IMG/VR virus record: IMGVR_UViG_3300012012_002042
Length of the DNA: 64,000 nt
Direction: 5' to 3' (one strand)
Origin: an uncultured virus (IMG/VR IMGVR_UViG_3300012012_002042)
Taxonomy: Duplodnaviria; Heunggongvirae; Uroviricota; Caudoviricetes
In this document: piece by piece, positions 1 through 54,451 of the stretch
Numbering within the stretch: the stretch's first letter is position 1
Layout: each line of letters starts with the position of its first letter
The notes under the pieces: generated by a model
The model's database searches: none
What the model saw: only the letters and a program-made list of their open reading frames with translations
What the model was told of the DNA's origin: nothing
Translations under genes and position numbers: made by a program

Positions 1-137
1 GGGAGCGCCATCTGCGTTTTCTGAGCGAAAATTACACTTCATGCTCCGCCCCTACGAATACGTGTGGCGTGAACCGCAGATGCCCCGGCTCGAAAGGGGA
101 GAACTGAGAAGGTTGATACAAAAAATCAAAACCAAAA

Positions 138-1106
138 ATGACTGAAGTCAAAGTAGTCGCGGACAGCATTAATCCGGAAGGGCAGCGAATATTGACGATG
201 ACGTGGAAATACCCGCGCTACATCCACTCGGAAATCATGACACATCGGATGCTCGTGAAGAATGCAGCATCCAGCCGCGCAATCCCGATCAAACGCATGC
301 TCGACATGGTCATCTCGGATCCGGTCATTCCCATACGCTGGGGTAAAAACCAGGCCGGCATGCAGTCCATGGAATGGCTCGAGGATCGCGCATCCGACAC
401 GGCCACGCTGGCCTGGCTGGAAGCTCGGACTCAAATGGTCCGCATGTGCAACGAATTCGACAAGCTGCAGATTCACAAGCAGTGGGCCAACCGAGTGCTC
501 GAACCGTGGATGCATATCACCGTGCTCGTCACGGGAACAGAGTGGGGGAATTTCTTCAATCTGCGAGCTCATCCCGATGCCCATCCGGATTTCCAGGCGT
601 TGGCTTATCGTGTGTTGGAAATGCACGAGGAGAGCAAACCCAAGGAATTGAATTGGGGTCAGTGGCATTTGCCATTTGGGGATCAGATGCCGGAGGGAAT
701 TGACAATGTCACGGCACAACTCCGCGTCGCCACTGCACGCGCGGCCCGTCTGAGTTATTTGACATTCGACGGCGTCATCGATCCCACGAAGGATTTCGAT
801 CTCCACGATTCGTTGCTGCGAAATGGACACTTCTCTCCCACCGAACATTCGGCGCGGGCGGAAAAGGACAAGCCGGATTACTGGGCAGAGTTGCAGGAAC
901 TTCTGCGGCGTGCAAAGGGATACACATCCACGGATAGCGAAATCCTCTCCAGCTGGCTTGCAGAAGATCTCTGGCGCGACCAGGGGTGTTTCCGCGGGTG
1001 GACTCCGTATCGGAAGCTGATCCCCGGGGAGAATCAGCGGGAGTTCGACGTCTCAGAATTGCTGGCACGGAAGCCGGAGTGGCTCCGTAATGCCGAAGTG
1101 AAATGA
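138..1106 (+). CDS. thyX: FAD-dependent thymidylate synthase (ThyX/Thy1 family)
   Basis: RYIHSEIMTHRMLVKNAASSR matches the ThyX (R/T)HRx7S signature; also HKQWANRVLEPW, NFFNLR and ARAARLSY, typical of phage ThyX. Confidence 0.9.
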   Translation: MTEVKVVADSINPEGQRILTMTWKYPRYIHSEIMTHRMLVKNAASSRAIPIKRMLDMVISDPVIPIRWGKNQAGMQSMEWLEDRASDTATLAWLEARTQMVRMCNEFDKLQIHKQWANRVLEPWMHITVLVTGTEWGNFFNLRAHPDAHPDFQALAYRVLEMHEESKPKELNWGQWHLPFGDQMPEGIDNVTAQLRVATARAARLSYLTFDGVIDPTKDFDLHDSLLRNGHFSPTEHSARAEKDKPDYWAELQELLRRAKGYTSTDSEILSSWLAEDLWRDQGCFRGWTPYRKLIPGENQREFDVSELLARKPEWLRNAEVK

Positions 1107-1120
1107 ACGCGTATCCCGCG

Positions 1121-1129
1121 TGATATAAT
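1121..1129 (+). promoter_or_regulatory. extended -10 promoter (TGnTATAAT), probably driving a leaderless mRNA
   Basis: TGATATAAT at 1121-1129, ATG 6 nt downstream at 1136. Confidence 0.6.
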
Positions 1130-1135
1130 TTCGAC

Positions 1136-1294
1136 ATGAACTACGACTACGTCTTCGACAAGTGCGTTGATCTGTTGAACTACGGCGCCCGCAAATTCGG
1201 GACGACGTACAAAACCATCAACGTCGTCGTCTTCTGCGTCATCTGGCCCGCCATCACGGTGGGTCTCGTGGCTGCAGTGATTTGCCTCTGGTAG
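1136..1294 (+). CDS. small membrane protein (52 aa, absent from the ORF track)
   Basis: Manual translation MNYDYVFDKCVDLLNYGARKFGTTYKTINVVVFCVIWPAITVGLVAAVICLW; C-terminal TM helix; flanked by a promoter and a terminator. Confidence 0.75.
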   Translation: MNYDYVFDKCVDLLNYGARKFGTTYKTINVVVFCVIWPAITVGLVAAVICLW

Positions 1295-1319
1295 TTACCA
1301 GGGGCAGTAAAAAGCATTC

Positions 1320-1356
1320 GGCCGGCATGGGGTAATTCCCGTGCCGGCTGTTTTTT
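1320..1356 (+). terminator. intrinsic terminator
   Basis: GCCGGCATGGGG-TAAT-TCCCGTGCCGGC stem-loop followed by TGTTTTTT. Confidence 0.8.
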
Positions 1357-1365
1357 AATTATCAA

Positions 1366-1638
1366 ATGAAATTCATTCATACGCTGAAAAATGGAACGGT
1401 GTGCACAGTGATTGTACAGTTCACACGGGATGATAAAGAGAAGCCAGCGGCCGTGCTAATAGCGGTTGAAAATGTCCAGCCGATTGCATTTATGGAATTC
1501 ATGCCGGAAGTCACACAGTGGTTGTCGGTTATCCTGCCGCAGATGATTCCGACAACTCGGGCTCACGATCACATGATGATGTTTCACATATCATCCGAAT
1601 TGACGGCACATCTGGGAGACAACCTGCAGATGAAATAA
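1366..1638 (+). CDS. hypothetical protein
   Basis: 90-aa ORF filling the gap after the terminator, AT-rich start context. Confidence 0.6.
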   Translation: MKFIHTLKNGTVCTVIVQFTRDDKEKPAAVLIAVENVQPIAFMEFMPEVTQWLSVILPQMIPTTRAHDHMMMFHISSELTAHLGDNLQMK

Positions 1639-1656
1639 CCACCCTTTAAGGGGTAT

Positions 1657-2205
1657 ATGAATTCGATGAAGAGTCATCTCCATCATACCCAGTCCGAGCC
1701 GAAAGGCAGCATTGGGACCGAGTCCGCCACCCAGGCGGGAGAAGCGCAAACGCGCACTGGGAAATACGCCATCACTCTGGTCGGATGGCGGATGGCCCTG
1801 GTGCTCACGCTGGCGGTGACCACCAGCGTTGCGGCGTACCTCTTCGGTACACCCACCGTCAACGGGGCCTTGGTGGCCGTTGGCGTGGAGATCCTGGCAC
1901 TGGTGTGCCTGGGGGCCTACGCCTTGTGGCTCCGGGAGGCAGGGTGCCGACTGGTGCTCCGGCACCTGGAGGTCCTGCGGACCCGGAAGGATATGTCCCT
2001 GCGGCCCGTGGGCCGCGCCGGCGGCTTCACCGTGATAGAGCTGATCATGGTGATCACCCTCATCGTGGGGGCATACTGGGTAGGATCAATTGTATTGCAG
2101 GCCCTGGGGTGGGCCATACCGGCCTTCTCAAAGCTGCTGGTCGGCGGCCTCGTAGTGCTCGCGCTGCTGGCCTGCATCGGCGGCGAGAAGAAGGGGGGCA
2201 AATGA
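1657..2205 (+). CDS. membrane protein with an internal type IV prepilin-like motif
   Basis: About four hydrophobic segments; RAGG/FTVIELIMVITLI motif; true start may be ATG 1666. Confidence 0.65.
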   Translation: MNSMKSHLHHTQSEPKGSIGTESATQAGEAQTRTGKYAITLVGWRMALVLTLAVTTSVAAYLFGTPTVNGALVAVGVEILALVCLGAYALWLREAGCRLVLRHLEVLRTRKDMSLRPVGRAGGFTVIELIMVITLIVGAYWVGSIVLQALGWAIPAFSKLLVGGLVVLALLACIGGEKKGGK

Positions 2206-2468
2206 CCTCCGTCAATGGCCGGGGCATGAGTCCCGGCAAGCGCAACAAAGGTTCCTTCCGCGCGTTCGGGATGCGCGCGGGCCAGGGCATCCTGGAGCGG
2301 CAGGCAGCGATGCGCGCGTCAGGCGACGTGGTGTCGGAAGCCGTCACGCCCGCTACGCCGGCACCGGCGCAGCGCCACCTCCAGCCGCTGTCCGAGCGGC
2401 TGGGCCAGACAGGCAGCGTCACCGTATGGTGGACGCGGGGGGCGGTGCAGATCGCCCACAACGACTGA
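2202..2468 (+). CDS. hypothetical protein
   Basis: ATG 2202 overlaps the upstream stop (ATGA); 3' part of track ORF 1785..2468. Confidence 0.5.
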   Translation: MTSVNGRGMSPGKRNKGSFRAFGMRAGQGILERQAAMRASGDVVSEAVTPATPAPAQRHLQPLSERLGQTGSVTVWWTRGAVQIAHND

Positions 2469-2643
2469 GAATTTGTCCAGCTGGGTTCGACCCCCGGCTG
2501 GACAATCTCAGCGGTTCGGATACGATAATTAAATTGGGAGTGCATGGCATAGAACCGGGAGGATGACTCCGGCACGTCGAGGGGTGTTCGCGAGGGACAG
2601 CCCCGCTGAACGTCATTGAACACATGCACTCCCAATTTTTATC
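2465..2643 (+). ncRNA. candidate structured intergenic RNA
   Basis: Long hairpin 2465-2511 capped by TTCGACC; perfect 16-bp inverted repeat (2531-2546 / 2623-2638) enclosing internal hairpins, one with a GCGA tetraloop. Confidence 0.5.
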
Positions 2644-2670
2644 TGGGGGTGAAATACAGGGCGGCGCGGC

Positions 2671-2684
2671 GGTATATGGATTTG
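2671..2684 (+). promoter_or_regulatory. repeated promoter-like motif GGTATATGRATTYG
   Basis: Identical GGTATATGGATTTG at 2671 and 5576, variant at 1652; each directly precedes a start codon. Confidence 0.6.
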
Positions 2685-2685
2685 C

Positions 2686-3093
2686 ATGAGCACACCAAGC
2701 TTGGTGCATACTCAGAGGCGCGTCGTGCCTCTGATCATGGGTGGTCCATCCACCTCGGCCGGCGCCGTGAAAGCCGATCCGAAACTGGAGAAATATTATC
2801 CAGTGGGGATTGCGGAGAGTCCCGTCGTTGTGCGTGAGGATTTGCGCACACATCTGCAAAAGGCCAAGTCCGGTAACCGCAAGCACGAGCTGAAGCTGAT
2901 CAACCGCATGGGCCAGTTTCGTCGGTCCTCTGCAGAATACCGCGTGCCCGACAGCCTGTTGGAAGTGTGGCAGGAGGCCATCCAGTTCCTTCGCGCCAAC
3001 GGGAGGTGTGTGGATTTCTACTCCTGCGATCCGCGCTACTGGGTTGGTGCGCGTGAAGGTGGTCCGCGGTGGTGGCTTCCGAATTCCCGATAA
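2686..3093 (+). CDS. hypothetical protein, probable paralogue of 5589..6161
   Basis: Shares MGGPSxS and VG(I/V)AE segments with the 5589 ORF. Confidence 0.55.
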   Translation: MSTPSLVHTQRRVVPLIMGGPSTSAGAVKADPKLEKYYPVGIAESPVVVREDLRTHLQKAKSGNRKHELKLINRMGQFRRSSAEYRVPDSLLEVWQEAIQFLRANGRCVDFYSCDPRYWVGAREGGPRWWLPNSR

Positions 3094-3094
3094 T

Positions 3095-3370
3095 ATGGCA
3101 ACAATGGCAACAACAGAAACCGAGCTGGCCGGCATGCCAGCAAAGGCGGACACCCGCCGGTTCCTCGTCAGCGCCACCTTCTATGGGTGGAGCTTTATGG
3201 ACGAGTTCTCATTCTGCGGCCAGTGCAACGCGAAAGCGTTGAAGGTACTGGTCGCGAAAGGGCCTGAAGAGGAAGTCGCGGCCTTCCTGACCAGCGGGAA
3301 GGACGAGTTCCGCTGGCGCGGCGAATCCCGCGGCGGCACGTCATCCCTGCGGATCGACGTGGTGAAGTGA
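3095..3370 (+). CDS. hypothetical protein
   Basis: ATG 3095 or 3104 right after the upstream stop; followed by a terminator. Confidence 0.55.
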   Translation: MATMATTETELAGMPAKADTRRFLVSATFYGWSFMDEFSFCGQCNAKALKVLVAKGPEEEVAAFLTSGKDEFRWRGESRGGTSSLRIDVVK

Positions 3371-3372
3371 TC

Positions 3373-3411
3373 AGGAAATCGCATGCCCGTGCGGGTGTGC
3401 GATTTCTTTAT
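3373..3411 (+). terminator. intrinsic terminator
   Basis: AGGAAATCGCATGCCC-GTGC-GGGTGTGCGATTTCTT stem followed by a T-rich tail. Confidence 0.65.
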
Positions 3412-3439
3412 GTGGGGGATAAACTCAAAACAAAATTAA

Positions 3440-4222
3440 TTGAAAAAAAGAACGACAGCAGATCCTGCGGAGATGAATTGGAATAATAGACAGACGAAAA
3501 GAAAGAATGACGCACTGCTCGAAGCTTACATGAGTCCGTTGTGGAATTCCGACAGAGAGCAAATTGACGTGTTGTCGCTACCGGCCGCGGAATGGCTGTG
3601 GGAGCGCGAGATCGCCCTCAAGCATCCAGACCAGACTTTCGTTTTCAGCGGTGTCGAAGCCAACCGAAAGGTGCATCGGCACCAGGTCCTCTGGGCGGAG
3701 CACCTTAATGTCGGACATTTCAATTATGACAACGCCACATTCGTTGCCATGCCAGAACCTACGAAGTGGTTCAACGCTCTCAGCGTGGCTGCCGTGGATC
3801 CGGAATTGCAATTCGACATCATTTACGCGGACTACATGGGAGCCTGGGCCGGTCCGAAACTGCACGACTTGGCCATGATGTTCAGTGAGAAACTGCTCAA
3901 GCCGGGAGGATATTTCCTGATGACGCTTTCGATGACCCGTGATGGGTATAATAATTTCGCGCGGAAAATGGCCATCCAATATGGGAAGCTGTTTCACGAC
4001 ATTCCCGTAATCGATGATCGGGCCGACTGGCGGGAGAGTGGCACACCGCAGAGCTCGGTGGTCCAGCGCGCACGCGGAATTGCGGCCTACGTGCAAGACT
4101 TGGGCAGAAAATACGGGCAGGCCGTCCAGATTCTTCCGCCGCACGTTTATTACAACGCGACGGAGAGTGGCAGGAGCTACCCGGAAATCGGATTTTGTTT
4201 CAGAAAATTAACCACAACATGA
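3440..4222 (+). CDS. putative class I SAM-dependent methyltransferase-fold protein
   Basis: FDIIYADYMG and LLKPGGYFLMT motifs; VFSGVE strand resembling motif II. Confidence 0.55.
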   Translation: MKKRTTADPAEMNWNNRQTKRKNDALLEAYMSPLWNSDREQIDVLSLPAAEWLWEREIALKHPDQTFVFSGVEANRKVHRHQVLWAEHLNVGHFNYDNATFVAMPEPTKWFNALSVAAVDPELQFDIIYADYMGAWAGPKLHDLAMMFSEKLLKPGGYFLMTLSMTRDGYNNFARKMAIQYGKLFHDIPVIDDRADWRESGTPQSSVVQRARGIAAYVQDLGRKYGQAVQILPPHVYYNATESGRSYPEIGFCFRKLTTT

Positions 4223-4223
4223 C

Positions 4224-4445
4224 ATGCCATATTTAATCGCAACACATTCAGGCGGAGCCGCGAGGGAGGCGGCGGAAGAGAAGCCGCCGTTTGGTCCCGG
4301 CTTCAGCGCGGAGATCGTGCAGCACTTGGAAAAGCTCGAAGTCTGGGGCTCATCCCTCAACGATCCCGGCGAAGACTGGACAGAGTTCCAGGCCATCAAC
4401 GGCGCCGGCAAGATGATCGCCTGCAAACGGGAAGCCGGATACTGA
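4224..4445 (+). CDS. hypothetical protein
   Basis: 73-aa ORF tightly packed between its neighbours. Confidence 0.6.
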   Translation: MPYLIATHSGGAAREAAEEKPPFGPGFSAEIVQHLEKLEVWGSSLNDPGEDWTEFQAINGAGKMIACKREAGY

Positions 4446-5557
4446 TGGCCAAAATATTCCCGGTCAAAATATCCGGAAATGAATTGCAGGCGACGGTGAC
4501 CGGCTTCAATAAACTTTTCACGCGTTTCGCCCTCCCCGTATTGAACTGCGTGCGGGTGAAACGCTCGAAGGATGGATGGGTTTCATTGACGCTCACTGAC
4601 CTGACCTCGTGGGCTACACGGTGGTTGCAGAGACCGCAGACGCAGTCTGTAGCCGAGCTGGAGTTTCTGGTTCCGTTCCAGAAATTGAAGGACATGTTGA
4701 AAGAGCACGGCTCCGCTGTGGAATATGCGTTGCAGCCTGGACGAATTGACTGTGGATATTCTGTCATGGCGCGTTGTGAGTTCGATCCGATCTCGGCCGA
4801 CGATTTCCCTGTGACGCCAGTCACGGCAGGGACACATGTGTCCCTTACTGCGGAGATGAAGCGTGCATTTATCGAGGCGACTGCATTCTGTTCTGAGGCA
4901 CTGAACGAGCATCCGATCATGGGAGTGCATTTCGATGTGCCGCGATCCGCTGTCGTCGCCACGAACAAGGCCACCTTGTATTTCCAGAAGTTCGATGCGA
5001 TGCCGCTGCAAAAGAGCTTCACTTTTCCCAATGGAAAATTCCTGACCTGGAAAGGATTTGCCGATGATGGCAATTGGCACATGATAGGCGGGCTCGACGG
5101 GACAGAACCCGCAGTGATGGTGTGCAGCAATTATTGGAGACTGACCTCAAAAACAATCCCGCACGCATTCCCGAGCTGGATGCAAGTTGTCCCGTGCAAT
5201 TTCCACTCCACCGTGGAGTTCTCTGTGACGCACACGAAACAGAATATCGAAGCAGTGAAAGCCTGTCCCACTTGGTCTTTGGCCGAGCCCGTCGGCGTCC
5301 GGCACCAATCCGGCGTCGTGAAGTTTTTCGGATTCAAGAATTTCGGGGAAAAGAATCAGAAGGAAATCAGGACGACCGCCTCGACGAATGCGGTGCAGGG
5401 TCGCGATTTCATGGTGGCGTTCATGCGGCGATATATCCTCCAGGCTCTCTCGCTCGGACTCCACCGAATGCGGTGGGCCGACCAAGCAGAGCTGCCTGTA
5501 TTGTTCACAGATGGCTACCGGACACTCCTGGTGATGCCATTCAAGAGTCCCGCGTGA
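4445..5557 (+). CDS. dnaN: DNA polymerase III beta sliding clamp-like protein (divergent)
   Basis: 370 aa; LPVLNCV, LTLTDL, DDFP, GVHFD..VVATN, AFMRRYILQAL and C-terminal LLVMP occur in beta-clamp order. Confidence 0.7.
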   Translation: MAKIFPVKISGNELQATVTGFNKLFTRFALPVLNCVRVKRSKDGWVSLTLTDLTSWATRWLQRPQTQSVAELEFLVPFQKLKDMLKEHGSAVEYALQPGRIDCGYSVMARCEFDPISADDFPVTPVTAGTHVSLTAEMKRAFIEATAFCSEALNEHPIMGVHFDVPRSAVVATNKATLYFQKFDAMPLQKSFTFPNGKFLTWKGFADDGNWHMIGGLDGTEPAVMVCSNYWRLTSKTIPHAFPSWMQVVPCNFHSTVEFSVTHTKQNIEAVKACPTWSLAEPVGVRHQSGVVKFFGFKNFGEKNQKEIRTTASTNAVQGRDFMVAFMRRYILQALSLGLHRMRWADQAELPVLFTDGYRTLLVMPFKSPA

Positions 5558-5588
5558 TATGAGGCCCGCGCGCGCGGTATATGGATTT

Positions 5589-6161
5589 GTGCTGGAGATC
5601 TTCTCCTCCATCCCGCAGCGCGCGTTGTGCGCTGCGGATATGGGCGGTCCATCCGCCTCGGGAGCTCCCGTGACAGAGCCGCTGCCCTACGGGTGCTTCG
5701 GCACTCGCGCCGAAGCGGAGACGCAGAAGGCGCAAGCCCTGGCGCGCGGTGCTATCAGCGCGCAGGTTCACCACCTAGACGCAATCCCCGAACAGCGCCG
5801 CGATTTCCCCGCGGTGGGGGTCGCTGAGGCCGCCATTCTCAGCGACGGCACCTCCGAGGAGAGGGCGGCCCTGGCGTGGGCTCAGGCGTCTTACTGGGCG
5901 CGCGGCGGGCGCGTCCTGGAGTCTGTCGTCGAGTGTCTCACCTCCGACCTGGAGGAGGGAACCTCCAATGGCGCCGGTAGCGAGGCGCACGGCTTCATTG
6001 CCGCACTGGAGCGGCGGCTGGAGGCGGCTCCGCGTGAGTCGCGGGTAGTCATCCCAGCACGCACTGAGTGCTGGGCAGTGGTGACGGAGTTCCCGGAGGT
6101 GGACGGCCCCGATACTTCGGGTTTTGCCCACGGGCAGGACTTCGAGGGAGGCAGCTGGTAG
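5589..6161 (+). CDS. hypothetical protein on a highly structured transcript
   Basis: In-frame GTG at the end of the GGTATATGGATTTG motif; partial similarity to the 2686 ORF. Confidence 0.5.
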   Translation: MLEIFSSIPQRALCAADMGGPSASGAPVTEPLPYGCFGTRAEAETQKAQALARGAISAQVHHLDAIPEQRRDFPAVGVAEAAILSDGTSEERAALAWAQASYWARGGRVLESVVECLTSDLEEGTSNGAGSEAHGFIAALERRLEAAPRESRVVIPARTECWAVVTEFPEVDGPDTSGFAHGQDFEGGSW

Positions 6162-6287
6162 TAATGGCCCCGTGAGCCAATAAAGAAACGGCAGAATTTA
6201 CAACGATGCAGTCATAAAAAGAGCTGCGGTCGAATCGTTGAGTTTCCACTGTGAAAAGGAAACTGTGTAGATGAGGAATTTTCAGAA

Positions 6288-6602
6288 ATGAAATTCATCA
6301 ATCTCACACCACACGCCATTCACCTGAATGACGGCCGTGTGTTCGAACCCTCTGGCCAGGTGGCCAGGGTCGGCTCGACCTACACGCCGTTCGACGGTGA
6401 CGGTGTCTGTCAGGCTGTGTTCGGAGAAGTCCAGAACCTGCCCGACAAGGTGGAAGGAACGATGCTCATCGTCTCCGGAATGGTCAGCCAAGTGGTTGAC
6501 GGTTACCGGAGCGACGTAGTGTCGCCTGCCACCGGGCACCCGGACACGAAGCGTGACGAGAAGGGCCAGATCAAGTCTGTGCCCGGATTCGTCCGCGCGT
6601 GA
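6288..6602 (+). CDS. conserved phage hypothetical protein (NLTPH family)
   Basis: MKFINLTPHAI...PSGQVARV...LP...LIVS...RSDVVSP pattern common in phages. Confidence 0.75.
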   Translation: MKFINLTPHAIHLNDGRVFEPSGQVARVGSTYTPFDGDGVCQAVFGEVQNLPDKVEGTMLIVSGMVSQVVDGYRSDVVSPATGHPDTKRDEKGQIKSVPGFVRA

Positions 6603-6819
6603 CCGAGGCGTGTGCTGCTGCATTTGGCAAGCGGGGCTCTGGCGAGCCTGTCAACAGAATCGCCCGGCACCATACAGACGCCTCTTCGTGGCGGTGCTAG
6701 AAACCGACAATTACGTCAGGCCAAGTCTCAGGTGATGGTCAAAAGAAGTGCCTCACCGCCCTCCCCGGAATCCCGAACCGGTGGTTGTAAAGTCGTGAAA
6801 GGTGGCGAGGGGATGGTTA

Positions 6820-7083
6820 ATGATAAAACCACCAGTGGGTAAGGCGGAAATCCAAGAAATCGCCGGACGGCGGTTCTTGGTGGCGGAGTTGCCCGCCGAA
6901 ACGGCAACCTGCGATGATCACATCGCAGAGCTCGTCGCCGGCCGCCCGGTCGTAGTGCCCTTTAGCAAAAGAGGGCACATGATCGGGAGGTTGAAGGCCC
7001 AGGGGGTCTTTACCACCTCAAAGCAGGTGGTCGCAGGGCAGTGGATCGCATTCTTCCCGTGTGCGCCGCGGGAGTGGAAGTAG
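6820..7083 (+). CDS. hypothetical protein
   Basis: ATG 6820; ends before a terminator. Confidence 0.55.
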   Translation: MIKPPVGKAEIQEIAGRRFLVAELPAETATCDDHIAELVAGRPVVVPFSKRGHMIGRLKAQGVFTTSKQVVAGQWIAFFPCAPREWK

Positions 7084-7092
7084 CGGTCCGTC

Positions 7093-7140
7093 AGCGGGAA
7101 TTGTCCGGGGGTAATTCCCCGGCGGTTCCCGCTTTCTTTT
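7093..7140 (+). terminator. intrinsic terminator closing the early region
   Basis: AGCGGGAATTGTCCGGGGG-TAAT-TCCCCGGCGGTTCCCGCT followed by TTCTTTT. Confidence 0.8.
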
Positions 7141-7178
7141 ATCTCCGGCATCTCTACAATACCGCGACGACCAGAGCC

Positions 7179-7958
7179 ATGCCCAATTTCCCGTCACGTT
7201 TGGAATTCATCAAAATCGCCATGGGGCTGAAGGCTCCGCTTTCCGCCATCCGTAAATTGTATCGCGGACTCCAGGGCATGGGATTTAATAAAGGGCTGCG
7301 CGGCTCTCCGTTCTCCCGCATCATGCCCGAAGCCGTGGCAGCACGCACCCAGACGATGCAGGCAGGAAAGATGTTGCCGGTCGGCGTCTCGAATCATTTC
7401 AGGGGTGCGATTCAAGTGAGCAAGGGGTCTCCCCGCGCCAATATTCCCGGAGTCGACACGGGACGATTCGCCAAACCCGCAGTGCCTGGCGGGACAAATC
7501 CCAGCCCCCTATCCACAGCCATGCACGAGGCGGGACATGGTGTTCACGATAAACAGGTGGGGAATTGGCATTGGAATGCGAGTCGACCCATCGGGGATAC
7601 GCATCCAGTTCGGCACATGGCGGAGATCGCCAGCGAATTCAACGCCAACAATACGGCAGTGCAGATGATGCGGCAGGCCGGTATTCCGCAGCATTTGGTG
7701 GACGGGTTTGTGGCGGCGCGTGCTCCGTCATTCGCCACTTATCTCAGCAGTGCGTCGCAGAAGTTGAATCCGATGATGCAATCGGCGCTCGCGTCCCCGT
7801 CAGGTGATCCCTTGCGGAGGTTTGCGAAACCGTATTCGGATGTGATGCGGAAAATAATCGGCGATCCGGTCATGCAAAAAGGGGTGACACCTTCGTTCAG
7901 TTTGCGTAAGGATCTGGAACCCATGCTCGACGCATTGCCGTTGAGTCTGCCAAAATAA
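7179..7958 (+). CDS. zincin-like metallopeptidase, putative virion cargo
   Basis: HEAGH (HExxH) plus downstream SEFNAN; N-terminal leader ends in FIKIA. Confidence 0.65.
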   Translation: MPNFPSRLEFIKIAMGLKAPLSAIRKLYRGLQGMGFNKGLRGSPFSRIMPEAVAARTQTMQAGKMLPVGVSNHFRGAIQVSKGSPRANIPGVDTGRFAKPAVPGGTNPSPLSTAMHEAGHGVHDKQVGNWHWNASRPIGDTHPVRHMAEIASEFNANNTAVQMMRQAGIPQHLVDGFVAARAPSFATYLSSASQKLNPMMQSALASPSGDPLRRFAKPYSDVMRKIIGDPVMQKGVTPSFSLRKDLEPMLDALPLSLPK

Positions 7959-7966
7959 ATATCGCC

Positions 7967-10900
7967 ATGTTGAAACAATTGAGAGCCGCGGAAAAATCCG
8001 TCGACACAAATCCAACCCCGGCACAGGCCGAGGCTGGAAACTACGCACACGGCCATTTGCGCATGCTCGGCTTTGATGTGTCCATCGAGAACCCCAAGGA
8101 CTCGATCCGCCGCGGCACCGACAAGTCCGGAAAGGATTGGGAGGTGAAACTCAAACACTCTTACGGATACATCCGCGGGACCGCGGGAGCCGATGAGGAT
8201 CACCTGGACTGCTTCATTGGCGATCACCCCGAGTCGGAATTGATCTACGTGATCGACCAGCACATCGACGGGAAATTCGATGAACACAAATTGGTTTTCG
8301 GCAGCCTCTCGGAGGAGGATGCGCGCGAAGTGTATTTGTCGAATTACGAAAAGGGCTGGAAAGGGCTCAAACACATCACCCCGCTCACGAAGGCCCAATT
8401 GCGTTCGTGGGTGGACAACGGAGATCAGACGAAGAAACTCAAAGGACAGAAAATGGATTTTCACAAACGCGCCGGCATCTCCGCACCCGTTGCATCGAAC
8501 ATTGAGGGGGTTCTGAATACCGCCTCTACCGTCACAGACCTGACGAATAAAGCCGCGCCGGTTGTGCGGGCTGCGCCTGGCCTGACTCGGGCCGCTCCCC
8601 TCGTAGGGAGTATCGGAAAGCTGGCCGCACCTGCTGCCATGCTCAGCACCGCAGCAGATCTGAATGCTGTTGCGCGGGACTCCGAGGGAGCTGCGAAGGA
8701 TTTCAATCAGGACTGGAACAACTCCGGTGTCGCTGGTCGTGCGCTTTCTGTTGTCGGCAGTCCAATCAGGACGCTCAATGCCGCAGACTACAATAACAAC
8801 AACGCCGCCCGCGTTGCTGCCGCCAATTACACACCACCAATTCAGGCGCCGCAACCGAGCTTTCCGAAGCCGACGCAGACATCCGCACCGGCGGCGCTTG
8901 TACCGAAGCCGACCCCCAAACCAGCCATCAAACGCGCCGGGATGCTTCCAGGGCTGGCAATGGACGCAGTCGGAATGGTATTGCTGCCCCAAGCTTCACA
9001 TAATGAGGAAGCGCCGCACGTGAAAGGCGTCTCCACGGCGGAGCAGGTCAGCCGGGATTCAGATTTGATCTCAGGACATCTCACACGATACACCTACGGA
9101 GGCAAAGGTGCGTGGATGGCGGCGAAGGAGAAAATGCCGTCAGTGGCCGGGGATGTGGCGGACGCAATCGAACGTGCGCGCGCTCGCTTCAAAAAGCCCG
9201 AACTGCCCGAGGGCGAATATCACTCCTACTTCACACCGAAAGGTGATGAGCTGTATCAGAAGACATTGCTCCCGTTGCATGAGCAGGTGTTGGGGGATGG
9301 AATTGAAAAGGAGACGGCGGAGCCGGAGGCTGGGGATGTGCCGGTGTATGAGGATGAGCATCAGAAGATTTATCCGGCGGCGAAATGGACGGCGAAGGAT
9401 CAGGAGGATTTGGAGGATGCGTCGAAGTCCGCCGCCGCCCAGCAAGGCTGGTCTCCAGTCGCTATACAGGAACTTCAGGCACGCTTCGCCGCTGACCAGA
9501 AATCATCTGCCTTCCACACATTCTATGGAGAGCCGCTGTCATTGCAGGAGGCGGTGAAGACTGCATTTGCGGATATGCGGTTCACGGAAATTATTCCGGA
9601 TGAGGCTGACGACGAAACGGAAAAGAATGCCTCGCTCCTTCAGGAATTGAAAATCGCCAAGGAGCATTCAGATCGCGGTGATTACAAAACCAAGGCTGGC
9701 ATTATTCGCGGCCTCATGGTTTCGCATGGGGATGAATTCGATGTGGAGCCTTCTGAGGAGAGTTCGCACGTCGTGGGAATTACGCACCGACCCACGGGCT
9801 TCCGGATGCACATTCCGCGGACGGAGATCCCGCCGGCGAAATTGCAGTCAGAGCCGGAGCATTTGATTTCCTACGTGCCCGAACCCGCACTGGAGGCAAT
9901 TCGCAAACACGGACTGCTGAGCGGGAATGAATTGGCGAAGCCGGAGAATCGGCATCTCCTCAACCTGGCACGCTCCGCTGATGACGGTGGCGGCGCAGAG
10001 GGATGGCTGGCACGACGCGCGCAGGCATTGAAGGACAAACCATGGAATACTTCGTACTCCGGTCCCAGCGCAATGTTCGGGCCGCCGGATGAGGGGAAGC
10101 TGCATGACAAACATCCGACGAAGCGTTTCAAGTCCGTGCCGGTTCGCATTCGTCTCGCGCAATTGCTGGTCAAACATCCGGGCACGAAATTGCATGGGGC
10201 GGAGCTGGTGCCGTTCAACGAGAAATACGACACGATGTCCGAAGAGGAAAAGGACAAGCACGTGCGGGTGCGTCATCATGATCTGACTCCCAAGGAGATT
10301 TCCGCACTCATTCAGCGCGCGAAGAATCCGAAGGAGATGTGGCAGCACTACAACGATCCCGAGGGCAAGACATACTCTGGCAACGTACCGCACGCGCATG
10401 TCATTACTCCGCACGGGAAAATCGATCCGGAGTTCCTGGAGTTTCCGGACGCGGAGAAATCTGCAGGGCTTTCGCCGGAACAGGCAGTGCTCGCCAAAGT
10501 CCGGAAACATTTGGACAAGGCCGGCCACGATCCCGATGAAGATTGGGAGAAGTCGGCATTGCATTGGAGCAAAGATCTCACCCGCGACATCATGGGCGGC
10601 CGCAATTATCCGGTCAGCTATCTCACCGGCGAATTGGGTGAGGTGGGTGAAGCCATCAAGAATCTGGATTGGGAGAATTTGAAAGAGGAGTTGGGGGATT
10701 CCGCCTACGCCGCCCAGATGCTGATTGCGCAGCGCACAGGGTTGAATCTCCCGGTGCTCGGCGCGAATGCGCAGATCAAGAAATTCTACGACCGTATCGA
10801 ACGCTGGAAGAAAATATTCGGAGATCAGAATATTCCATTCTCCGTGGACCATCTCAGCGGCGGAAGCAATTACGCCAAGCCGGAAAAGATTCAAAAGGCT

Positions 10901-13312
10901 TTCGCCTTGGCCGGGCATCAGATGTCACCGGAGGAAGCTGCCGCCATCTCCCAGGCGGAAACCGTGACCGACGCCGACGAATTCCTCACACCCGAGATCG
11001 TCAAACACGCCGCTGACCAATGGGACAAACTCCGCGAGGAATTGAAGCCTAATCCGAAAATGCCGATCATCCCGATCCCCGGCCTGCGGAATGCCATGTT
11101 CGTGCCGAAGGAGAATTTTCAACAGGACCAACCCATTGAAGGTCTCTCCCCCGACATTCACGCGCTGGCGAAAGCCCACGGCTTGATCGGCTACGACCCA
11201 CGCCCCGAATTCAACAACGAATCCGTGATGCGTCACGAAATGGGTCACTCCAAAATGTGGGACCATGACTGGGCTCACAAACTCCGCAGCCCTGGTCAAG
11301 CCCTGTCCGGATGGTCCCAACTCCTCGCCATGCCACTCGGCGCCCTGCTTCACAAGCGGTCACCCCTGTTGGCCCCTGCACTCACCGGCGGAGGTACGGC
11401 GACCGGGTTCATCCCCACCATCGCCGGAGAATATCATGCGGACTCAGCTGGAAATATTAGCACGGCAGATCCGATCATCGGGAATTTCCGGAAGACCTAC
11501 TGGAACGCGGCGGGGTTCAATACGGCGATGTCCGCGATGTTGGCGACGGCCGGCAGAGGCACAGCCAAACTGGTGAATGCCTTGATGCACAAGGTTGCTT
11601 CCGTGCGTCCGGTAAATGTGCCCTCGCGGGACAAGCTGCCATTCCGGGAGTCTGCCGAGGTCATTCTGCGTGATGGAGACGACCTGGTGGGAATATTGGC
11701 TGAAGGGCATGGTGGGAAGAAATTCCTCAAATTCCCCGGCGGCGGCATTGATGAGGGCGAAAGCATTCAGCAGGGCCTGGAACGTGAGATGATGGAAGAG
11801 GCAGGCGTCACCGGTCACGGGATGACTGGGCATGGGCATTCGCAGATCATCTGGCATCCCGACATGGAACAGCACAAGCCGGAGAAGTATGCCAAATTCC
11901 AGGGCAGCCGCCGGCATGTATTCTCGGGGTGGTTGAAATCGAGTGGCAAGCCGACGTCGAAGGAGGGTGATGAATTGACTGGCAGCATGCGTATTCCGAT
12001 TTCGAAAGCGGTGGCGCATTTGCAGGACCAGATCGCACACCCTGAACACGATTCCGATGGCGGAATGCTCCGACACCGATTCCTGCAACTCGCAGCCATT
12101 CATGAATTGATGGACTCGCAGCATGAGAAAGAGGCCGCCGTAGCAAAGGCAATTCCAACCACCGGCCCTGAGGCCCTCGCATATCATCTGGGTCGCATCA
12201 ACCTCGACGATCTCGAAGCGCAGAACCACGCGCTCGTAAAATCCGGCAAAGTGTCCAAGCGTGATCAGGCAGTGAAGATCCTGAATATTGTCGAGGGGAT
12301 GCGCCGGAATGAATTGCACCCACGGGAATTGATGATCAACCACGTCCCCGTCATCCCCGCAGCATTCCGCCCATATTCCTTGGCCGGCTCCTCATTCATT
12401 CCAGGCAACGCCAACGAACTGTATCGAGACCTGTTCACCAACCGGAAAGTTTATGACGAGGCGAAACGTGAATTGGGTCCTGAAGGTGAAGGCGAGGCCG
12501 CACACAATCTCTACAACGCAGTGCGCGCCGTTTATGGATTCGGCGAGCCCGTCAACGACAAGGCCCGCGCGCGCGGCGTTACAGGCTTCTTCGAACAGAT
12601 CACCGGCAGCTCGCCGAAATTTGGTTACGCTCAGCGACGTCTCCTCTCCAAGCCAGTGGACAATGTCGGGCGAGCCACGATCACCATCAATCCCGATCTC
12701 GGGCTTGATGAGATTGGCATTCCGCGGGAGATGGCGTGGGATATATTCGACACGAAGTTGCATCGGCATTTGGTGAAGAAGGGATTTTCCCCGGCGGATG
12801 CGGCATTGTCGCTGCGTGATCGGGATGACCATGCGAAGAGGGCATTGGAAGATGTGGTGCCGAATCATCCGGTGCAGTATTCGCGGGCTCCGGCGTGGCA
12901 TCAGTTCTCGACGTTGGGGGCGATGCCGAAACTGTTTGATGGGAATACAATTCAAATCAACCCTTATGTTACAGCTGGCTTAAACGCCGATTTCGACGGG
13001 GACGCTATTAACGTGCACGCGCCGACTTCCGAAGAGGTTCTGAAGGAAACCCGCGACATCTTGATGCCATCGAAAATGCTGTTCACAATTCGGGACCAGG
13101 ACAAGGTAATGCCGACGATCAAACATGAGTCGTTGCTGTCATTACACAACGCGGGGGCGCGGGCATCCGTCAAGGTCTGGAATTTCCCTTCACATGCCGA
13201 GGCCTTGGCTGCGGTGCGCAAAGGGACGGTGCCATTGCATGACTCGATCGTATTTCCGGGCAGTGAGGAAATGGAGATGAAAACTCAGGGGCTGCCTCCT
13301 GTCGTGAAATAG
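7967..13312 (+). CDS. rpoC: polyvalent protein: PPase-like, ART-like, MazG-like, zincin and Nudix domains plus the catalytic half of RNA polymerase beta'
   Basis: NADFDGD (12983-13003), VPVIPAAFRP, RRLLSKPVD, SRAPAWH; Nudix box GGGIDEGE..LEREMMEEAG; HEMGH; GELGEV..LKEELGD; N-terminal IENPK..YGYIRGT.GADEDHLD..FDEHK. Confidence 0.9.
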   Translation: MLKQLRAAEKSVDTNPTPAQAEAGNYAHGHLRMLGFDVSIENPKDSIRRGTDKSGKDWEVKLKHSYGYIRGTAGADEDHLDCFIGDHPESELIYVIDQHIDGKFDEHKLVFGSLSEEDAREVYLSNYEKGWKGLKHITPLTKAQLRSWVDNGDQTKKLKGQKMDFHKRAGISAPVASNIEGVLNTASTVTDLTNKAAPVVRAAPGLTRAAPLVGSIGKLAAPAAMLSTAADLNAVARDSEGAAKDFNQDWNNSGVAGRALSVVGSPIRTLNAADYNNNNAARVAAANYTPPIQAPQPSFPKPTQTSAPAALVPKPTPKPAIKRAGMLPGLAMDAVGMVLLPQASHNEEAPHVKGVSTAEQVSRDSDLISGHLTRYTYGGKGAWMAAKEKMPSVAGDVADAIERARARFKKPELPEGEYHSYFTPKGDELYQKTLLPLHEQVLGDGIEKETAEPEAGDVPVYEDEHQKIYPAAKWTAKDQEDLEDASKSAAAQQGWSPVAIQELQARFAADQKSSAFHTFYGEPLSLQEAVKTAFADMRFTEIIPDEADDETEKNASLLQELKIAKEHSDRGDYKTKAGIIRGLMVSHGDEFDVEPSEESSHVVGITHRPTGFRMHIPRTEIPPAKLQSEPEHLISYVPEPALEAIRKHGLLSGNELAKPENRHLLNLARSADDGGGAEGWLARRAQALKDKPWNTSYSGPSAMFGPPDEGKLHDKHPTKRFKSVPVRIRLAQLLVKHPGTKLHGAELVPFNEKYDTMSEEEKDKHVRVRHHDLTPKEISALIQRAKNPKEMWQHYNDPEGKTYSGNVPHAHVITPHGKIDPEFLEFPDAEKSAGLSPEQAVLAKVRKHLDKAGHDPDEDWEKSALHWSKDLTRDIMGGRNYPVSYLTGELGEVGEAIKNLDWENLKEELGDSAYAAQMLIAQRTGLNLPVLGANAQIKKFYDRIERWKKIFGDQNIPFSVDHLSGGSNYAKPEKIQKAFALAGHQMSPEEAAAISQAETVTDADEFLTPEIVKHAADQWDKLREELKPNPKMPIIPIPGLRNAMFVPKENFQQDQPIEGLSPDIHALAKAHGLIGYDPRPEFNNESVMRHEMGHSKMWDHDWAHKLRSPGQALSGWSQLLAMPLGALLHKRSPLLAPALTGGGTATGFIPTIAGEYHADSAGNISTADPIIGNFRKTYWNAAGFNTAMSAMLATAGRGTAKLVNALMHKVASVRPVNVPSRDKLPFRESAEVILRDGDDLVGILAEGHGGKKFLKFPGGGIDEGESIQQGLEREMMEEAGVTGHGMTGHGHSQIIWHPDMEQHKPEKYAKFQGSRRHVFSGWLKSSGKPTSKEGDELTGSMRIPISKAVAHLQDQIAHPEHDSDGGMLRHRFLQLAAIHELMDSQHEKEAAVAKAIPTTGPEALAYHLGRINLDDLEAQNHALVKSGKVSKRDQAVKILNIVEGMRRNELHPRELMINHVPVIPAAFRPYSLAGSSFIPGNANELYRDLFTNRKVYDEAKRELGPEGEGEAAHNLYNAVRAVYGFGEPVNDKARARGVTGFFEQITGSSPKFGYAQRRLLSKPVDNVGRATITINPDLGLDEIGIPREMAWDIFDTKLHRHLVKKGFSPADAALSLRDRDDHAKRALEDVVPNHPVQYSRAPAWHQFSTLGAMPKLFDGNTIQINPYVTAGLNADFDGDAINVHAPTSEEVLKETRDILMPSKMLFTIRDQDKVMPTIKHESLLSLHNAGARASVKVWNFPSHAEALAAVRKGTVPLHDSIVFPGSEEMEMKTQGLPPVVK

Positions 13313-14234: not shown

Positions 14235-14885
14235 ATGTCTCTACTCTCCGATCTCGAGAAAACGCGCGCGCTGATGGCGGACCTGATTAAACTCGCGTTC
14301 CAGCCACCGCCAGGCCCGCCAGGAGGAAATATGCCGCAAGGTCAGACGGCACCCATCGGCGCTCCACCCGCGGTAGATCCGTCCCAAGGTCAACCCATGC
14401 CTCCCGGTCCGCCTCCCGGAGATCCGTCACAGCAGCAAGGCCCGCCTCCCGGAGATCCTTCGCAGCAGCAAGGTCCACCTCCCGGAGATCCTTCGCAACA
14501 GCAAGGTCCACCTCCAGGTGATCCGGCGGCTGGTGGTGCTCCGCCTCCGGGAGATCCTTCGCAGCAGCAAGGGGCACCTCCGGGTGGAGGGATTGACCCG
14601 GGTCAATTGGCGCAGGTTTTGCAGCAATTGCAGCAGACCAACGAGAAAACTCTGGCCATTGCACAGCGCAACGAAAAGGCTCAGGAAGCATTGCATGCGC
14701 AGATGGCGAAGACCCGTGAGGAATTCGCGGTGGTGCGCGCCATGTCGGCGCAGGCGATGAAAGCCTTGCAACAGCCGACTTCATTTTCACCGGCACCCGG
14801 GCTGGATCATCACGCCAGTCAACAGTATGACCAGGCTGCAGCGCCTGCGCCGGCTGGTGGGGCGCCCGGTATGCCACAGGGATAA
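14235..14885 (+). CDS. Pro/Gln-rich disordered protein with a K-x-A leader
   Basis: MSLLSDLEKTRALMADLIKLA followed by GPPPGDPSQQQ repeats and a coiled coil. Confidence 0.75.
   Translation: MSLLSDLEKTRALMADLIKLAFQPPPGPPGGNMPQGQTAPIGAPPAVDPSQGQPMPPGPPPGDPSQQQGPPPGDPSQQQGPPPGDPSQQQGPPPGDPAAGGAPPPGDPSQQQGAPPGGGIDPGQLAQVLQQLQQTNEKTLAIAQRNEKAQEALHAQMAKTREEFAVVRAMSAQAMKALQQPTSFSPAPGLDHHASQQYDQAAAPAPAGGAPGMPQG
14406..14580 (+). repeat. 33-nt coding tandem repeat (GPPPGDPSQQQ, about 4-5 degenerate units)
   Basis: Visible in DNA and protein. Confidence 0.85.
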
Positions 14886-48696: not shown

Positions 48697-49635
48697 ATGA
48701 ATGCGAATACCGAATTAGCGTTTCATATCCTGGCAGCGGTCGACATGGTGAAGCGCGCAGACACACGCCACGGTAGGGAATACGCAAGGATGCTGAGCGA
48801 CCCTACGGCATTCAGTTCAGACAGTCGTAGAATTTTGGAGTTTCTGAACACCGAGGCTCGACGTGGTCAATCCGGCACAGGGGAAATTTTTAAGGGACGG
48901 GAGATGCGTTCTCTCGGTCAATCTCTGCTTAGTTATCCTGAAAGATACGCGGTGACACCAATGACTCCGATGCTGGCTGCTGATCGCTTGCAGGACATAA
49001 AGACGATGACGTCTGGGCGGCATTTGGCCTTGCCGCATGAGTATGTAATTCCAGCAGGTGTAAATGCTGAAGTCACGGGAAGGATCAATCCTCCGAACTC
49101 CGGTTCTATTTTTAGAGGCGGGGATATTTTACCAGACCAGGTCCAGTTCTTCTCGAAGCATCCTGATGTGGCTGCAAACTACGCGATGGGTCGTCGCGGC
49201 GATGTAACGTCTGGTCGAACCAACCGACAACTGCACGCGGAGCAGCGCCCGTTTAATGCTTACAAGGCGGATTCGTTCGATACCCTGCGTACGCAGTCAA
49301 CAGGCGGTCCGGAAGGTCCTGCGGCGGTAAACGTAAATCGTGAAATACCCGCGGCTCGGTATCCAGGCTCCAAGAGCATGGTGCAAACATTTGGATCGGT
49401 GAACCCGAGTTACGAAACGACGGCGCATGTGTCGCCGACAAATACGCCCAAGTGGCTGGGACAATACGGAGCGCGGCATGTTCGGGCGGCGGATGGTATG
49501 CCCGCCCTCGCTTTATCAAGAGTCTCCGGGGCCTCAATACCCAAAGCATTCGGTCCACACTTGATTCAGTCTCCCAGTTTTGGAACCCGCGTGCTGTCAG
49601 GGTTGAAGAATCTCCGAAAATTAATCAGACTGTGA
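48697..49635 (+). CDS. putative ADP-ribosyltransferase-fold virion cargo protein
   Basis: 21-aa leader MNANTELAFHILAAVDMVKRA; IFRG ... FFSKHPDVAANYA ... YE. Confidence 0.55.
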   Translation: MNANTELAFHILAAVDMVKRADTRHGREYARMLSDPTAFSSDSRRILEFLNTEARRGQSGTGEIFKGREMRSLGQSLLSYPERYAVTPMTPMLAADRLQDIKTMTSGRHLALPHEYVIPAGVNAEVTGRINPPNSGSIFRGGDILPDQVQFFSKHPDVAANYAMGRRGDVTSGRTNRQLHAEQRPFNAYKADSFDTLRTQSTGGPEGPAAVNVNREIPAARYPGSKSMVQTFGSVNPSYETTAHVSPTNTPKWLGQYGARHVRAADGMPALALSRVSGASIPKAFGPHLIQSPSFGTRVLSGLKNLRKLIRL

Positions 49636-53992: not shown

Positions 53993-54451
53993 ATGATCGA
54001 CATCTTTGGTTACGAAAAAACAATCGAAGGCCCCGGCGCAATTCTCACGTCGGAGTTTGCCAATGTTTCGCTCGGCGGTCGCATGGCGCTCGTCCAGTCT
54101 TGCCAGGCACAGTATGCCCGCCAAATCCAGTCGATGTTCGAAGCCGGCGCTTCCGTGGTTTATTACAATCAGGGCGCCAGCGAAGGGAACATCAACGTGA
54201 ACGCGGCCGTCGGCTCGAAGGGGTTCTTCGTGAACTTCAATAATCTCTCGGGCAGCTGTGGAGCCATCGACAAGGTCTCCATCGACGTACGCACAGGCAA
54301 TGGGTGTCTGAAGGGTGGCGGCGGTGGTATCAGCTTTGCGGGCGCCATGGCCGAGAGTTTCAATGTCTCGTTCCAGTCCGGCCCTGTGGCTGTGACGGAG
54401 GGCGTTGGCATTCGCGTTGGGGCGATGAGCGTCCGCAGCGCCACGACGTAA
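53993..54451 (+). CDS. tail tube protein
   Basis: 152-aa beta-rich ORF after the sheath; LVQS.Q.QY.RQIQ.MFEAG...YY..G...G. Confidence 0.7.
   Translation: MIDIFGYEKTIEGPGAILTSEFANVSLGGRMALVQSCQAQYARQIQSMFEAGASVVYYNQGASEGNINVNAAVGSKGFFVNFNNLSGSCGAIDKVSIDVRTGNGCLKGGGGGISFAGAMAESFNVSFQSGPVAVTEGVGIRVGAMSVRSATT

Follow-up and report, generated by a model that had tools for sequence, protein, structure and literature searches.

Introduction

In T4-type phages, short promoter-early stem-loop (PeSL) cassettes that comprise a promoter, a stem-loop and the start of a gene are found in variable regions, where they mediate modular shuffling (PMC2839356, PMC4122927). As far as these accounts describe them, PeSL cassettes appear to be the closest system in concept to an element that is present twice, beginning at 2671 and at 5576, in 64,000 nucleotides of DNA from an uncultured member of the Caudoviricetes (IMG/VR record IMGVR_UViG_3300012012_002042); this whole stretch is hereafter called the window. 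A first-pass annotation, made from the sequence alone, had described the element as a duplicated promoter plus three hairpins with compensatory changes. We find that each copy contains a two-box promoter-like motif followed by four hairpins (H0 to H3), the last two of which lie within the start of an open reading frame (ORF). We lean towards the view that the cassette is a promoter joined to a cis-acting mRNA leader at the 5' end of two modular small-gene transcription units, reusable before unrelated genes and swapped between phages.

The likeness to PeSL cassettes, as the cited accounts present them, extends to the make-up of the short repeated cassettes (promoter, stem-loop and start of the downstream gene), to their concentration in variable regions before small genes of unknown function, and to the breakpoints of insertions, deletions and replacements between related phages, which fall within the cassettes. 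The stable stem-loop in or next to the PeSL promoter has a counterpart in H0, which is found at 7 of the 10 instances of the motif. The element differs, however, in that its boxes (TGAAATA and YATATR) are not those of the sigma-70 consensus and the phage has its own multisubunit RNA polymerase, in that its main hairpins are placed past the promoter, within the transcript, where they flank the AUG and reach into the first 11 codons, and in that the H1-H3 segment moves with the gene and not with the promoter.

For jumbo phages, the late promoter of phiKZ, which serves the non-virion RNA polymerase, is reported as TATG with +1 at the G, and the activity of promoter P119L requires an undefined downstream sequence from +1 to +51 (PMC4666361); the early promoters of AR9 and phiKZ, which serve the virion RNA polymerase, have an extended, highly conserved AT-rich consensus in one block, and transcription starts 6 nt downstream of it (PMC5312081). 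Split beta'-like polymerase subunits and a short, conserved, strand-specific motif that ends in G near the predicted start are shared with these systems as described, and the region needed by P119L coincides with the position of H0 and H1 here. In contrast to the single block of the early promoters, the motif has two boxes separated by a GC-rich 16-nt spacer. TATG is present just in box 2 of the window lineage and does not coincide with the conserved G, near which the start is predicted here from the sequence: in each of the three window copies, TATATG precedes the conserved final G by 6 nt, and the seven copies in a complete related genome of 185,656 bp from IMG/VR (G001) have CATATA or CACATA.

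The SAS/ESAS of Cluster K mycobacteriophages is a repeated asymmetric motif directly upstream of the start codons of non-structural genes of different families; SAS has a Shine-Dalgarno (SD) core (13-bp motif, AGGAG) 3-7 bp from the start, occurs in many copies and is of unproven function (PMC3203893). Our element is likewise a repeated gene-start motif, and some SAS copies are described as having adjacent inverted repeats, but there is no SD-like core before ATG 2737 or ATG 5640, the copies number only 2-3, and coding nucleotides are included. In translational operators such as the MS2 replicase hairpin and those of T4 gene 43 and gene 32, a conserved hairpin and loop lie on or beside the start codon of co-regulated messages. 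The element shares this arrangement, and differs from these operators in having three hairpins rather than one, a binding partner that is only putative, and a host that apparently initiates without an SD sequence. N4-type hairpin promoters, which have a 5-7 bp stem and a 3-nt loop about 11 nt upstream of the start and are used by a T7-like single-subunit virion polymerase, do not correspond: H1 has a 3-nt loop but a stem of 10-11 bp, and the polymerase pieces of this phage are of the multisubunit type.

A two-box promoter-like motif

An identical 14-mer, GGTATATGGATTTG, stands at 2671-2684 and 5576-5589, exactly where the first-pass annotation had placed it. Such a word repeated once in 64 kb is not unusual per se, as we estimate that a few such pairs occur by chance. 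The clue to its meaning is a relative's cassette that has another 14-mer, GTCATATACAAATG, yet carries TGAAATA likewise 16 nt upstream of the ATAT core. The 14-mer is thus the second box (box 2) of a motif whose first box lies 16 nt before TATAT, with the consensus TGAAATA-16 nt-YATATR-N4-TG. Two matches to the pattern TGAAATA-N(14-19)-ATAT are present in the window, against 0.03 expected, and another two in L002, the G001 locus of about 12 kb that holds a leader copy, against 0.00 expected; the spacing is identical in all four cases. Five exact copies of the motif, or seven when up to 2 mismatches are allowed, are present in G001; all seven are on the forward strand and all seven lie between the end of one ORF and the start of another, whereas the reverse strand and reversed-pattern controls yield zero copies.

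In total, we count 10 instances in two phage lineages (three in the window, seven in G001), without exception intergenic and on the gene strand. In their ungapped alignment, 10 columns are invariant and 5 more nearly so, all of them within the boxes, at the spacer end or at the final TG; outside the two boxes only the two G's that end the spacer and the final G are invariant. Box 2 is lineage-specific, being TATATGGATTTG in the window and CATATACAAATG-like in G001. The geometry (a 7-nt box, a GC-rich 16-nt spacer, YATATR, and a conserved TG 4 nt later) resembles that of -35/-10 elements, and transcription would start at or near the final G. The promoter part of the proposal is well supported by this distribution, from which promoter activity itself may be inferred. 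The earlier claim of a phage promoter therefore stands insofar as the 14-mer belongs to a two-box, strand-specific, promoter-like signal of fixed spacing with 10 instances; hairpins H1-H3, however, are not part of that signal. Box 1 of copy 2, TGATATG, includes the TGA stop of a clamp-like gene.

Scans of positions 1-9000 for sigma-70 promoters flag none of the three window sites, and TAnnTTTG, which we take to be the Bacteroidota-type -7 consensus, has one match on the + strand and seven on the - strand, with no association with gene starts. The two boxes may bear some resemblance to the sigma-32 consensus. Across the window, TnnnTTTG occurs 30 times on the + strand and 75 times on the - strand. 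Small hairpins are predicted in all 10 GC-rich spacers (-2.0 to -9.2 kcal/mol, given without a shuffle control). An upstream ORF starting from the ATG inside TATATGG was considered and rejected, since its frame and end differ between the copies and this ATG lies upstream of the predicted start.

Hairpins around the start codon

H1, H2 and H3 fold as the first-pass annotation had described and are collinear at both sites (Table 1). H0 is a fourth hairpin, which lies directly 3' of the 14-mer in both copies. When H0 is defined as an uninterrupted stem of at least 5 bp that starts no more than 12 nt from the final G, the 7 of 10 instances compare with 35% of 5,000 random positions (Mann-Whitney p = 0.012), and the stem sequences are unrelated among instances. 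H1 ends 2-3 nt before the ATG, the G of which is the first nucleotide that can pair in H2, and H2 and H3 both lie inside the first 11 codons. The TGA said to end both copies is indeed present, at 2768-2770 and 5671-5673, but in the frame of the gene these letters read GTG-A and are no stop; moreover, the TGA is missing in some relatives' versions, according to our reading of the letters of lake-metagenome contigs.

The 22-nt block that contains the AUG and H2, ATGGGYGGTCCATCCRCCTCGG, occurs twice in the 64 kb when up to 3 mismatches are allowed (0.00 expected from 100 shuffles). A covariance model of H1-H3, a check of the kind proposed with the original description, scores 83.8 and 80.5 bits on the two copies and 14.9 bits on the next best match in the window, and the elements have RNA folding z-scores of -2.1 to -3.5. 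With cmscan at E up to 1, a search of positions 1-9000 places no Rfam family on either copy. The possibility of an ncRNA gene family can be set aside because both copies run straight on into protein-coding ORFs. Two other kinds of repeat were considered and rejected: the template and variable repeats of a diversity-generating retroelement, because the differences are not adenine-specific, and an integron attC or attI site, because there is no integrase and no match to the core site.

Conservation in the element follows the nucleotides rather than the peptide in several places. Each of the six lower H1 pairs has a different sequence in the two copies and is formed in both, and the apex GCGC-GTY-GTGC is kept although, as had been noted at the outset, it is read in different frames (..G CGC GTC GTG C.. 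versus ..GC GCG TTG TGC..). The two differences in the 22-nt block amount to one compensated pair, and 5 of its 6 synonymous sites are identical. The H3 stem of 4-5 bp is kept in five versions with different peptides, as read by eye from the lake contigs. In a formal count, 13 of the 13 alignable pairs form and 2 of these are compensatory; the six lower pairs of H1 could be compared by coordinates only, because MAFFT places a gap inside the 3' arm of H1. The proposal that structure and not peptide is under selection is consistent with this conservation of the H1 core and the H2 block, seen across different frames, at synonymous sites and before three unrelated proteins, but the covariation that had been invoked for it is statistically weak. 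Stem sequences that differ while pairing is kept make a function at the RNA level plausible.

Genes led by the element and their exchange

The peptide MGGPS[AT]S is begun or contained in all 18 database proteins that span the block, and the leader heads three unrelated protein bodies: gene A, gene B, and P0002 with its homologues. Members of the gene A family, of which there are 46 representatives at E up to 0.001, begin only a few residues ahead of a conserved [FY]YP, and the 15 cassette-encoded residues of gene A are therefore an N-terminal add-on. Gene B has its own ATG and no cassette in the window, and in relatives it is fused directly to the cassette (..MGGPSASGI[AV]PVTTQKRVEQ..). No Pfam or PHROG family, and no other family or signal, is recognized in the proteins led by the element. 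Where genes A and B adjoin, the gene B frame is open upstream to GTG 3008 and its codon scores over 3021-3090 beat those of gene A's own frame; homologues indicate that the gene A frame is real to about residue 129 of 135, and P0063 has been called in the upstream-extended gene B frame.

H1-H3 is carried only by the two window copies and by one site in G001. Six of the seven G001 copies of the motif lack it, and the seventh, with the sole G001 copy of H1-H3, has a different box 2; H1-H3 is thus separable from the promoter, and the suggestion that the hairpins form part of the promoter signal does not hold. Moreover, positions 5603-7178 of the window are 96% identical over 1,579 nt to positions 5964-7536 of L002, and the rest of this 12-kb locus has no match to the window. 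The shared unit starts at the H0/H1 boundary, so that the promoter is left out of it, and in G001 it stands behind that genome's own version of box 2. Since one RNA polymerase piece of G001 is only 49-63% identical to that of the window at the protein level, the comparison indicates recent transfer of a promoter-less transcription unit between two distinct phages, in each of which it lies behind the phage's own promoter version.

Contigs from lake metagenomes point to further rearrangement at the cassettes. In some, the cassette of the copy 1 locus is joined directly to gene B and gene A is missing; the cassette there is a mosaic, with a start like copy 1, a unique middle, and an H1 end and H2 like copy 2. 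One relative from the same runs passes from the end of the clamp-like gene (window 5573) to window 7067 onward, and 5574-7066 is absent. For T4-type PeSL cassettes, recombination between copies is also described as yielding encapsidated mini-circles. "Goes back" joints are listed among the lake contigs, but assembly contigs at a repeat cannot show circles.

Genomic setting

The first 7.2 kb of the window is made up of successive promoter-to-terminator units (Table 1). A large terminator-like hairpin, followed by a T run, precedes the motif of copy 1 by 10 nt; given this strong terminator, we infer that genes A and B, if expressed, need a promoter at about this point. Long hairpins followed by T runs, at 1319-1350, 3373-3408 and 7096-7140, split the small-gene region into short terminator-bounded units. 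The hairpin at 2473-2505, which directly follows ORF 2202-2468 and precedes the big terminator hairpin, has 13 perfect base pairs and a 7-nt loop, TTCGACC, resembling a tRNA T-loop on an acceptor/T-stem minihelix; ARAGORN reports no tRNA in the window and Rfam has no match for this hairpin. In the 232-nt gap between ORFs, 6666-6732 matches the HDV-like ribozyme RF02682 weakly and probably by chance (24.4 bits against a gathering threshold of 44, E = 0.38). As for units without H1-H3 in G001, the promoter copy at 54273 is followed by an 8-bp H0, an unstructured A/C-rich leader and an ATG that opens a lipoprotein-like signal peptide, and at L007 (G001:C1, about 102400) the leader between a promoter copy and an ORF contains a triple AAAATTC repeat.

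Table 1. Positions, in the window, of the motif copies, hairpins, genes and units discussed.
Feature	Position	Strand	Description
Unit at 1631	from 1631	+	motif, ORFs 1666-2205 and 2202-2468, hairpins 2473-2505 and 2531-2640 with T run
Promoter-like motif, copy 3 (weaker)	1631-1665	+	TGAAATA, 16 nt, TATATGAATTCG; without H1-H3
H0-like hairpin of copy 3	1665-1678	+	
Large terminator-like hairpin	2531-2640	+	AATTGGGAGTGCATG...CATGCACTCCCAATT then T5; closes the unit upstream of copy 1
Unit 1	from 2650	+	motif 2650, genes A and B, terminator-like hairpin 3373-3408 (up to 16 bp) then T run
Promoter-like motif, copy 1	2650-2684	+	TGAAATA 2650-2656, GC-rich 16-nt spacer, box 2 TATATGGATTTG 2673-2684; predicted start at or near G2684
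H0, copy 1	2686-2709	+	core CACCAAG/CTTGGTG 2693-2706; outer ATG/CAT pairs possible
H1, copy 1	2712-2734	+	10-bp stem with one G-U pair, loop GTC; ends 2 nt before ATG
ATG, H2 and H3, copy 1	2737-2767	+	encodes MGGPSTSAGA
Gene A	2737-3093	+	family of proteins of roughly 100-115 aa
H2, copy 1	2740-2754	+	GGYGG, loop TCCAT, CCRCC pattern
H3, copies 1 and 2	2756-2767 and 5659-5670	+	
Gene B	3095-3370	+	own ATG, no cassette in the window
Unit 2	from 5555	+	motif 5555, three ORFs, terminator 7096-7140
Promoter-like motif, copy 2	5555-5589	+	TGATATG, 16-nt spacer, box 2 TATATGGATTTG 5578-5589
H0, copy 2	5594-5606	+	GGAGA-TCT-TCTCC
Transferable unit	5603-7178	+	H1-H3 leader, P0002 gene, ORFs 6288-6602 and 6835-7083, terminator 7096-7140
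H1, copy 2	5613-5637	+	11 bp including pair 5613/5637, 10 bp for 5614-5636; one G-U pair, loop GTT
ATG, H2 and H3, copy 2	5640-5670	+	encodes MGGPSASGAP
P0002 gene	5640-6161	+	third body behind the leader
H2, copy 2	5643-5657	+	GGYGG, loop TCCAT, CCRCC pattern
RNA polymerase beta' piece 1	7967-13312		positions of the 1,781-aa fusion protein whose C-terminus is the piece
RNA polymerase beta' piece 2	27477-29318		613-aa protein

Every long ORF of the window is on the + strand, the GC content is about 57%, and the genes include phage structural and lysis genes as well as two pieces of a multisubunit RNA polymerase beta' subunit. Parts of the region occur in roughly 18 sequencing runs from freshwater and lake metagenomes, and contigs with window proteins reach 183-186 kb; we conclude that the window belongs to an uncultured jumbo phage of fresh water with a split multisubunit RNA polymerase of its own. 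The 1,781-aa ORF also has inorganic pyrophosphatase, MazG and NUDIX domains beside the N-terminal part of beta' (Rpb1 domain 2), and the PHROG matches of its N-terminus are virion and head proteins. The nearest GenBank phages to the 613-aa protein (Vibrio phage D69 and its relatives, and Salmonella phage Arash) are just about 28-29% identical. An SD-like motif, even loosely defined, precedes about 12 of 62 gene starts, and the upstream regions are mostly A/C-rich; starts often read ...ATGAA behind A/C-rich stretches, which suggests a host with SD-independent initiation.

No close relatives were found in the phage GenBank set, JGI metagenome contigs or GTDB genomes, and IMG/VR queries with the clamp-like protein, a combined pattern or a single RNA polymerase protein returned none; the IMG/VR loci compared here were obtained solely through the H2-block pattern and an alignment-based polymerase query. 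Coding tandem repeats are present at 20326-21300, inside ORF 18733-21612 (45-nt period, about 16 or more copies), at 14361-14590 (33-nt period, with abundant Pro, Gly and Gln codons) and at 31673-31960 (three near-perfect 93-nt units, 99% identical). A 49-nt direct repeat (61-71% identical) at 30967, 32754 and 36283 marks the starts of three neighboring ORFs and suggests paralogous N-termini.

Discussion

In the arrangement that we propose, each unit would be transcribed from the two-box promoter, and the transcript would open with H0, which probably protects the 5' end of the mRNA or stabilizes it. The portable leader would follow, with H1 abutting the AUG, a near-invariant H2 (loop UCCAU) beginning at the G of the AUG, and the small H3. 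Because H2 begins at this G and H3 comes directly after it, the RNA element would fix the first 8 codons (MGGPS[AT]S.). With H1 and H2 clamping the AUG from either side, initiation should be inefficient as long as nothing opens or binds the structure, and since this clamped AUG occurs in a phage with mostly SD-less, unstructured, A/C-rich leaders, we read the leader as a cis-acting control of translation. Translation might in this way be held low, or made conditional, for a set of accessory genes that share the leader, with the invariant loop and flanks of H2 as the likeliest contact of a trans-acting factor. Genes would be swapped behind the cassette and whole promoter-less units would move between phages, and the cassette, being repeated, may also serve as a recombination point.

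A number of observations weigh against this proposal. The H1-H3 covariance model finds no third copy in the window and one copy per G001-type genome (G001 and G002 were scanned). Five more distant relatives, whose polymerases are 38-54% identical, show no enrichment of the strict motif (0-2 matches, controls similar), which limits its generality. The covariation test, for which only 2-3 independent sequences could be aligned, is not significant, as 122 of 500 shuffles reach the observed score, and one H1 pair, at window 5634, has G in the window, C in G001 and, as inferred from protein P0053, A, uncompensated each time. Template switching, moreover, can yield apparently compensatory changes and perfect stems without selection. 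The + and - strands fold with nearly equal energies (-38.1 versus -37.0 and -44.7 versus -42.3 kcal/mol, G-U pairs slightly favoring the + strand), so that a role of the DNA itself would also fit. Finally, each of the three window copies has, within 0-2 nt of box 2, a start codon in frame with and open to the gene (ATG 2686, GTG 5589 and ATG 1666), the stretches from box 2 to the gene have codon scores of +1.4, +9.7 and +6.3 (in-frame mean 6.1, out-of-frame -9.2), and the predicted accessibility of both candidate starts is alike; the frames and scores mean that the "leader" may instead be translated, from a leaderless or near-leaderless mRNA.

This last point concerns a variant of the proposal and not its replacement. 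If the 5' end of the mRNA is the NTG that closes box 2, and this triplet either serves as the start codon or adjoins it, the hairpins would fall within the first 30 or so codons and MGGPS would be internal. In-frame open starts next to box 2 also occur in G001 at 49247 (GTG) and 139772 (ATG), box 2 ends in ATG, GTG or TTG at all seven G001 sites, and gene callers have placed several database protein starts there. At 49247, however, the ATG of box 2 is followed at once by TGA and it is the GTG formed from its last base that is in frame with the gene, the GTG at 102329 is followed by TAG, and the lipoprotein-like signal peptide at 54273 begins at the second ATG, behind an ordinary A/C-rich leader. 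Moreover, the 16-17 residues that would precede MGGPS differ completely among cassette versions, the H1 core is read in two frames, and three of five gene-A proteins have been called from MGGPS. We therefore consider leaderless translation unlikely and favor the downstream ATG (2737 or 5640) as the reasonably probable start.

The remaining alternatives would dispense with a leader that controls translation. A phenomenon confined to DNA, such as a recombination hot spot or a PeSL-type attenuator whose stems arose by template-switch (quasi-palindrome) mutation or by gene conversion, would account for the breakpoints between relatives at the cassette edges, for the similar folding of both strands and for a first 7.2 kb so rich in hairpins that it holds 12 of the 21 uninterrupted hairpins of at least 10 bp on the + strand of the window. 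In addition, two cassettes whose 29-residue readings are identical (P0003 and P0058) seem to lie on the 168,822-bp contig of one relative, which suggests conversion. Neutral decay after duplication, however, would hardly leave near-identical blocks alternating with wholly different segments that still pair. The synonymous sites and loop of the H2 block are also frozen and the H3 stem, as read by eye, is kept across five peptide versions, and we regard this explanation as improbable. Selection on the protein, with MGGPS[AT]S.G as a functional N-terminal tag shared by a set of phage proteins, for instance for targeting, processing or packaging, could explain why the motif is kept in all 18 spanning proteins and before three bodies. 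Gene B nevertheless does without the peptide in the window lineage, synonymous positions are conserved and the single stem change is compensated, the adjacent H1 core is conserved in different frames, and no family or signal is recognized; a tag thus seems quite improbable. Least probable of all, and in our judgment very unlikely, is a polymerase-modifying RNA like HK022 put or lambda nut, in which nascent hairpins would confer read-through of the many terminators of this region. Two copies just downstream of promoters, stems that differ while structure is kept, and a terminator-dense setting are all in line with the general anatomy of put and nut sites, but each unit closes with a strong terminator beyond which a new promoter follows, the element, unlike put and nut, overlaps the start codon, and six of the seven G001 promoters lack it.

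Returning to the cis-acting leader, we offer, as a doubtful though attractive extension, that H1-AUG-H2-H3 represents a new class of portable cis-regulatory leader for phages of non-SD hosts, a self-contained start module in which the AUG is clamped, a conserved factor of phage or host reads the invariant H2 (loop UCCAU), and the leader moves with promoter-less units between jumbo phages that have different promoter versions. In a bolder sub-case of this idea, the start-proximal hairpins might, by analogy with phiKZ P119L, be the undefined "downstream determinant" of phage multisubunit RNA polymerases.

To our knowledge, almost nothing is known about the transcription and translation signals of uncultured jumbo phages with their own RNA polymerases. 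The present comparison provides a concrete candidate for a two-box promoter, with 10 sites in two lineages and a lineage-specific box 2, together with a compact structured leader that is reused before unrelated accessory genes and has been exchanged between phages. It also offers a clean example of the shuffling of promoter-to-terminator gene units from one jumbo phage to another. If the leader controls initiation in an SD-less host, it would give a handle on how such phages time or limit the expression of possibly toxic host-takeover genes.

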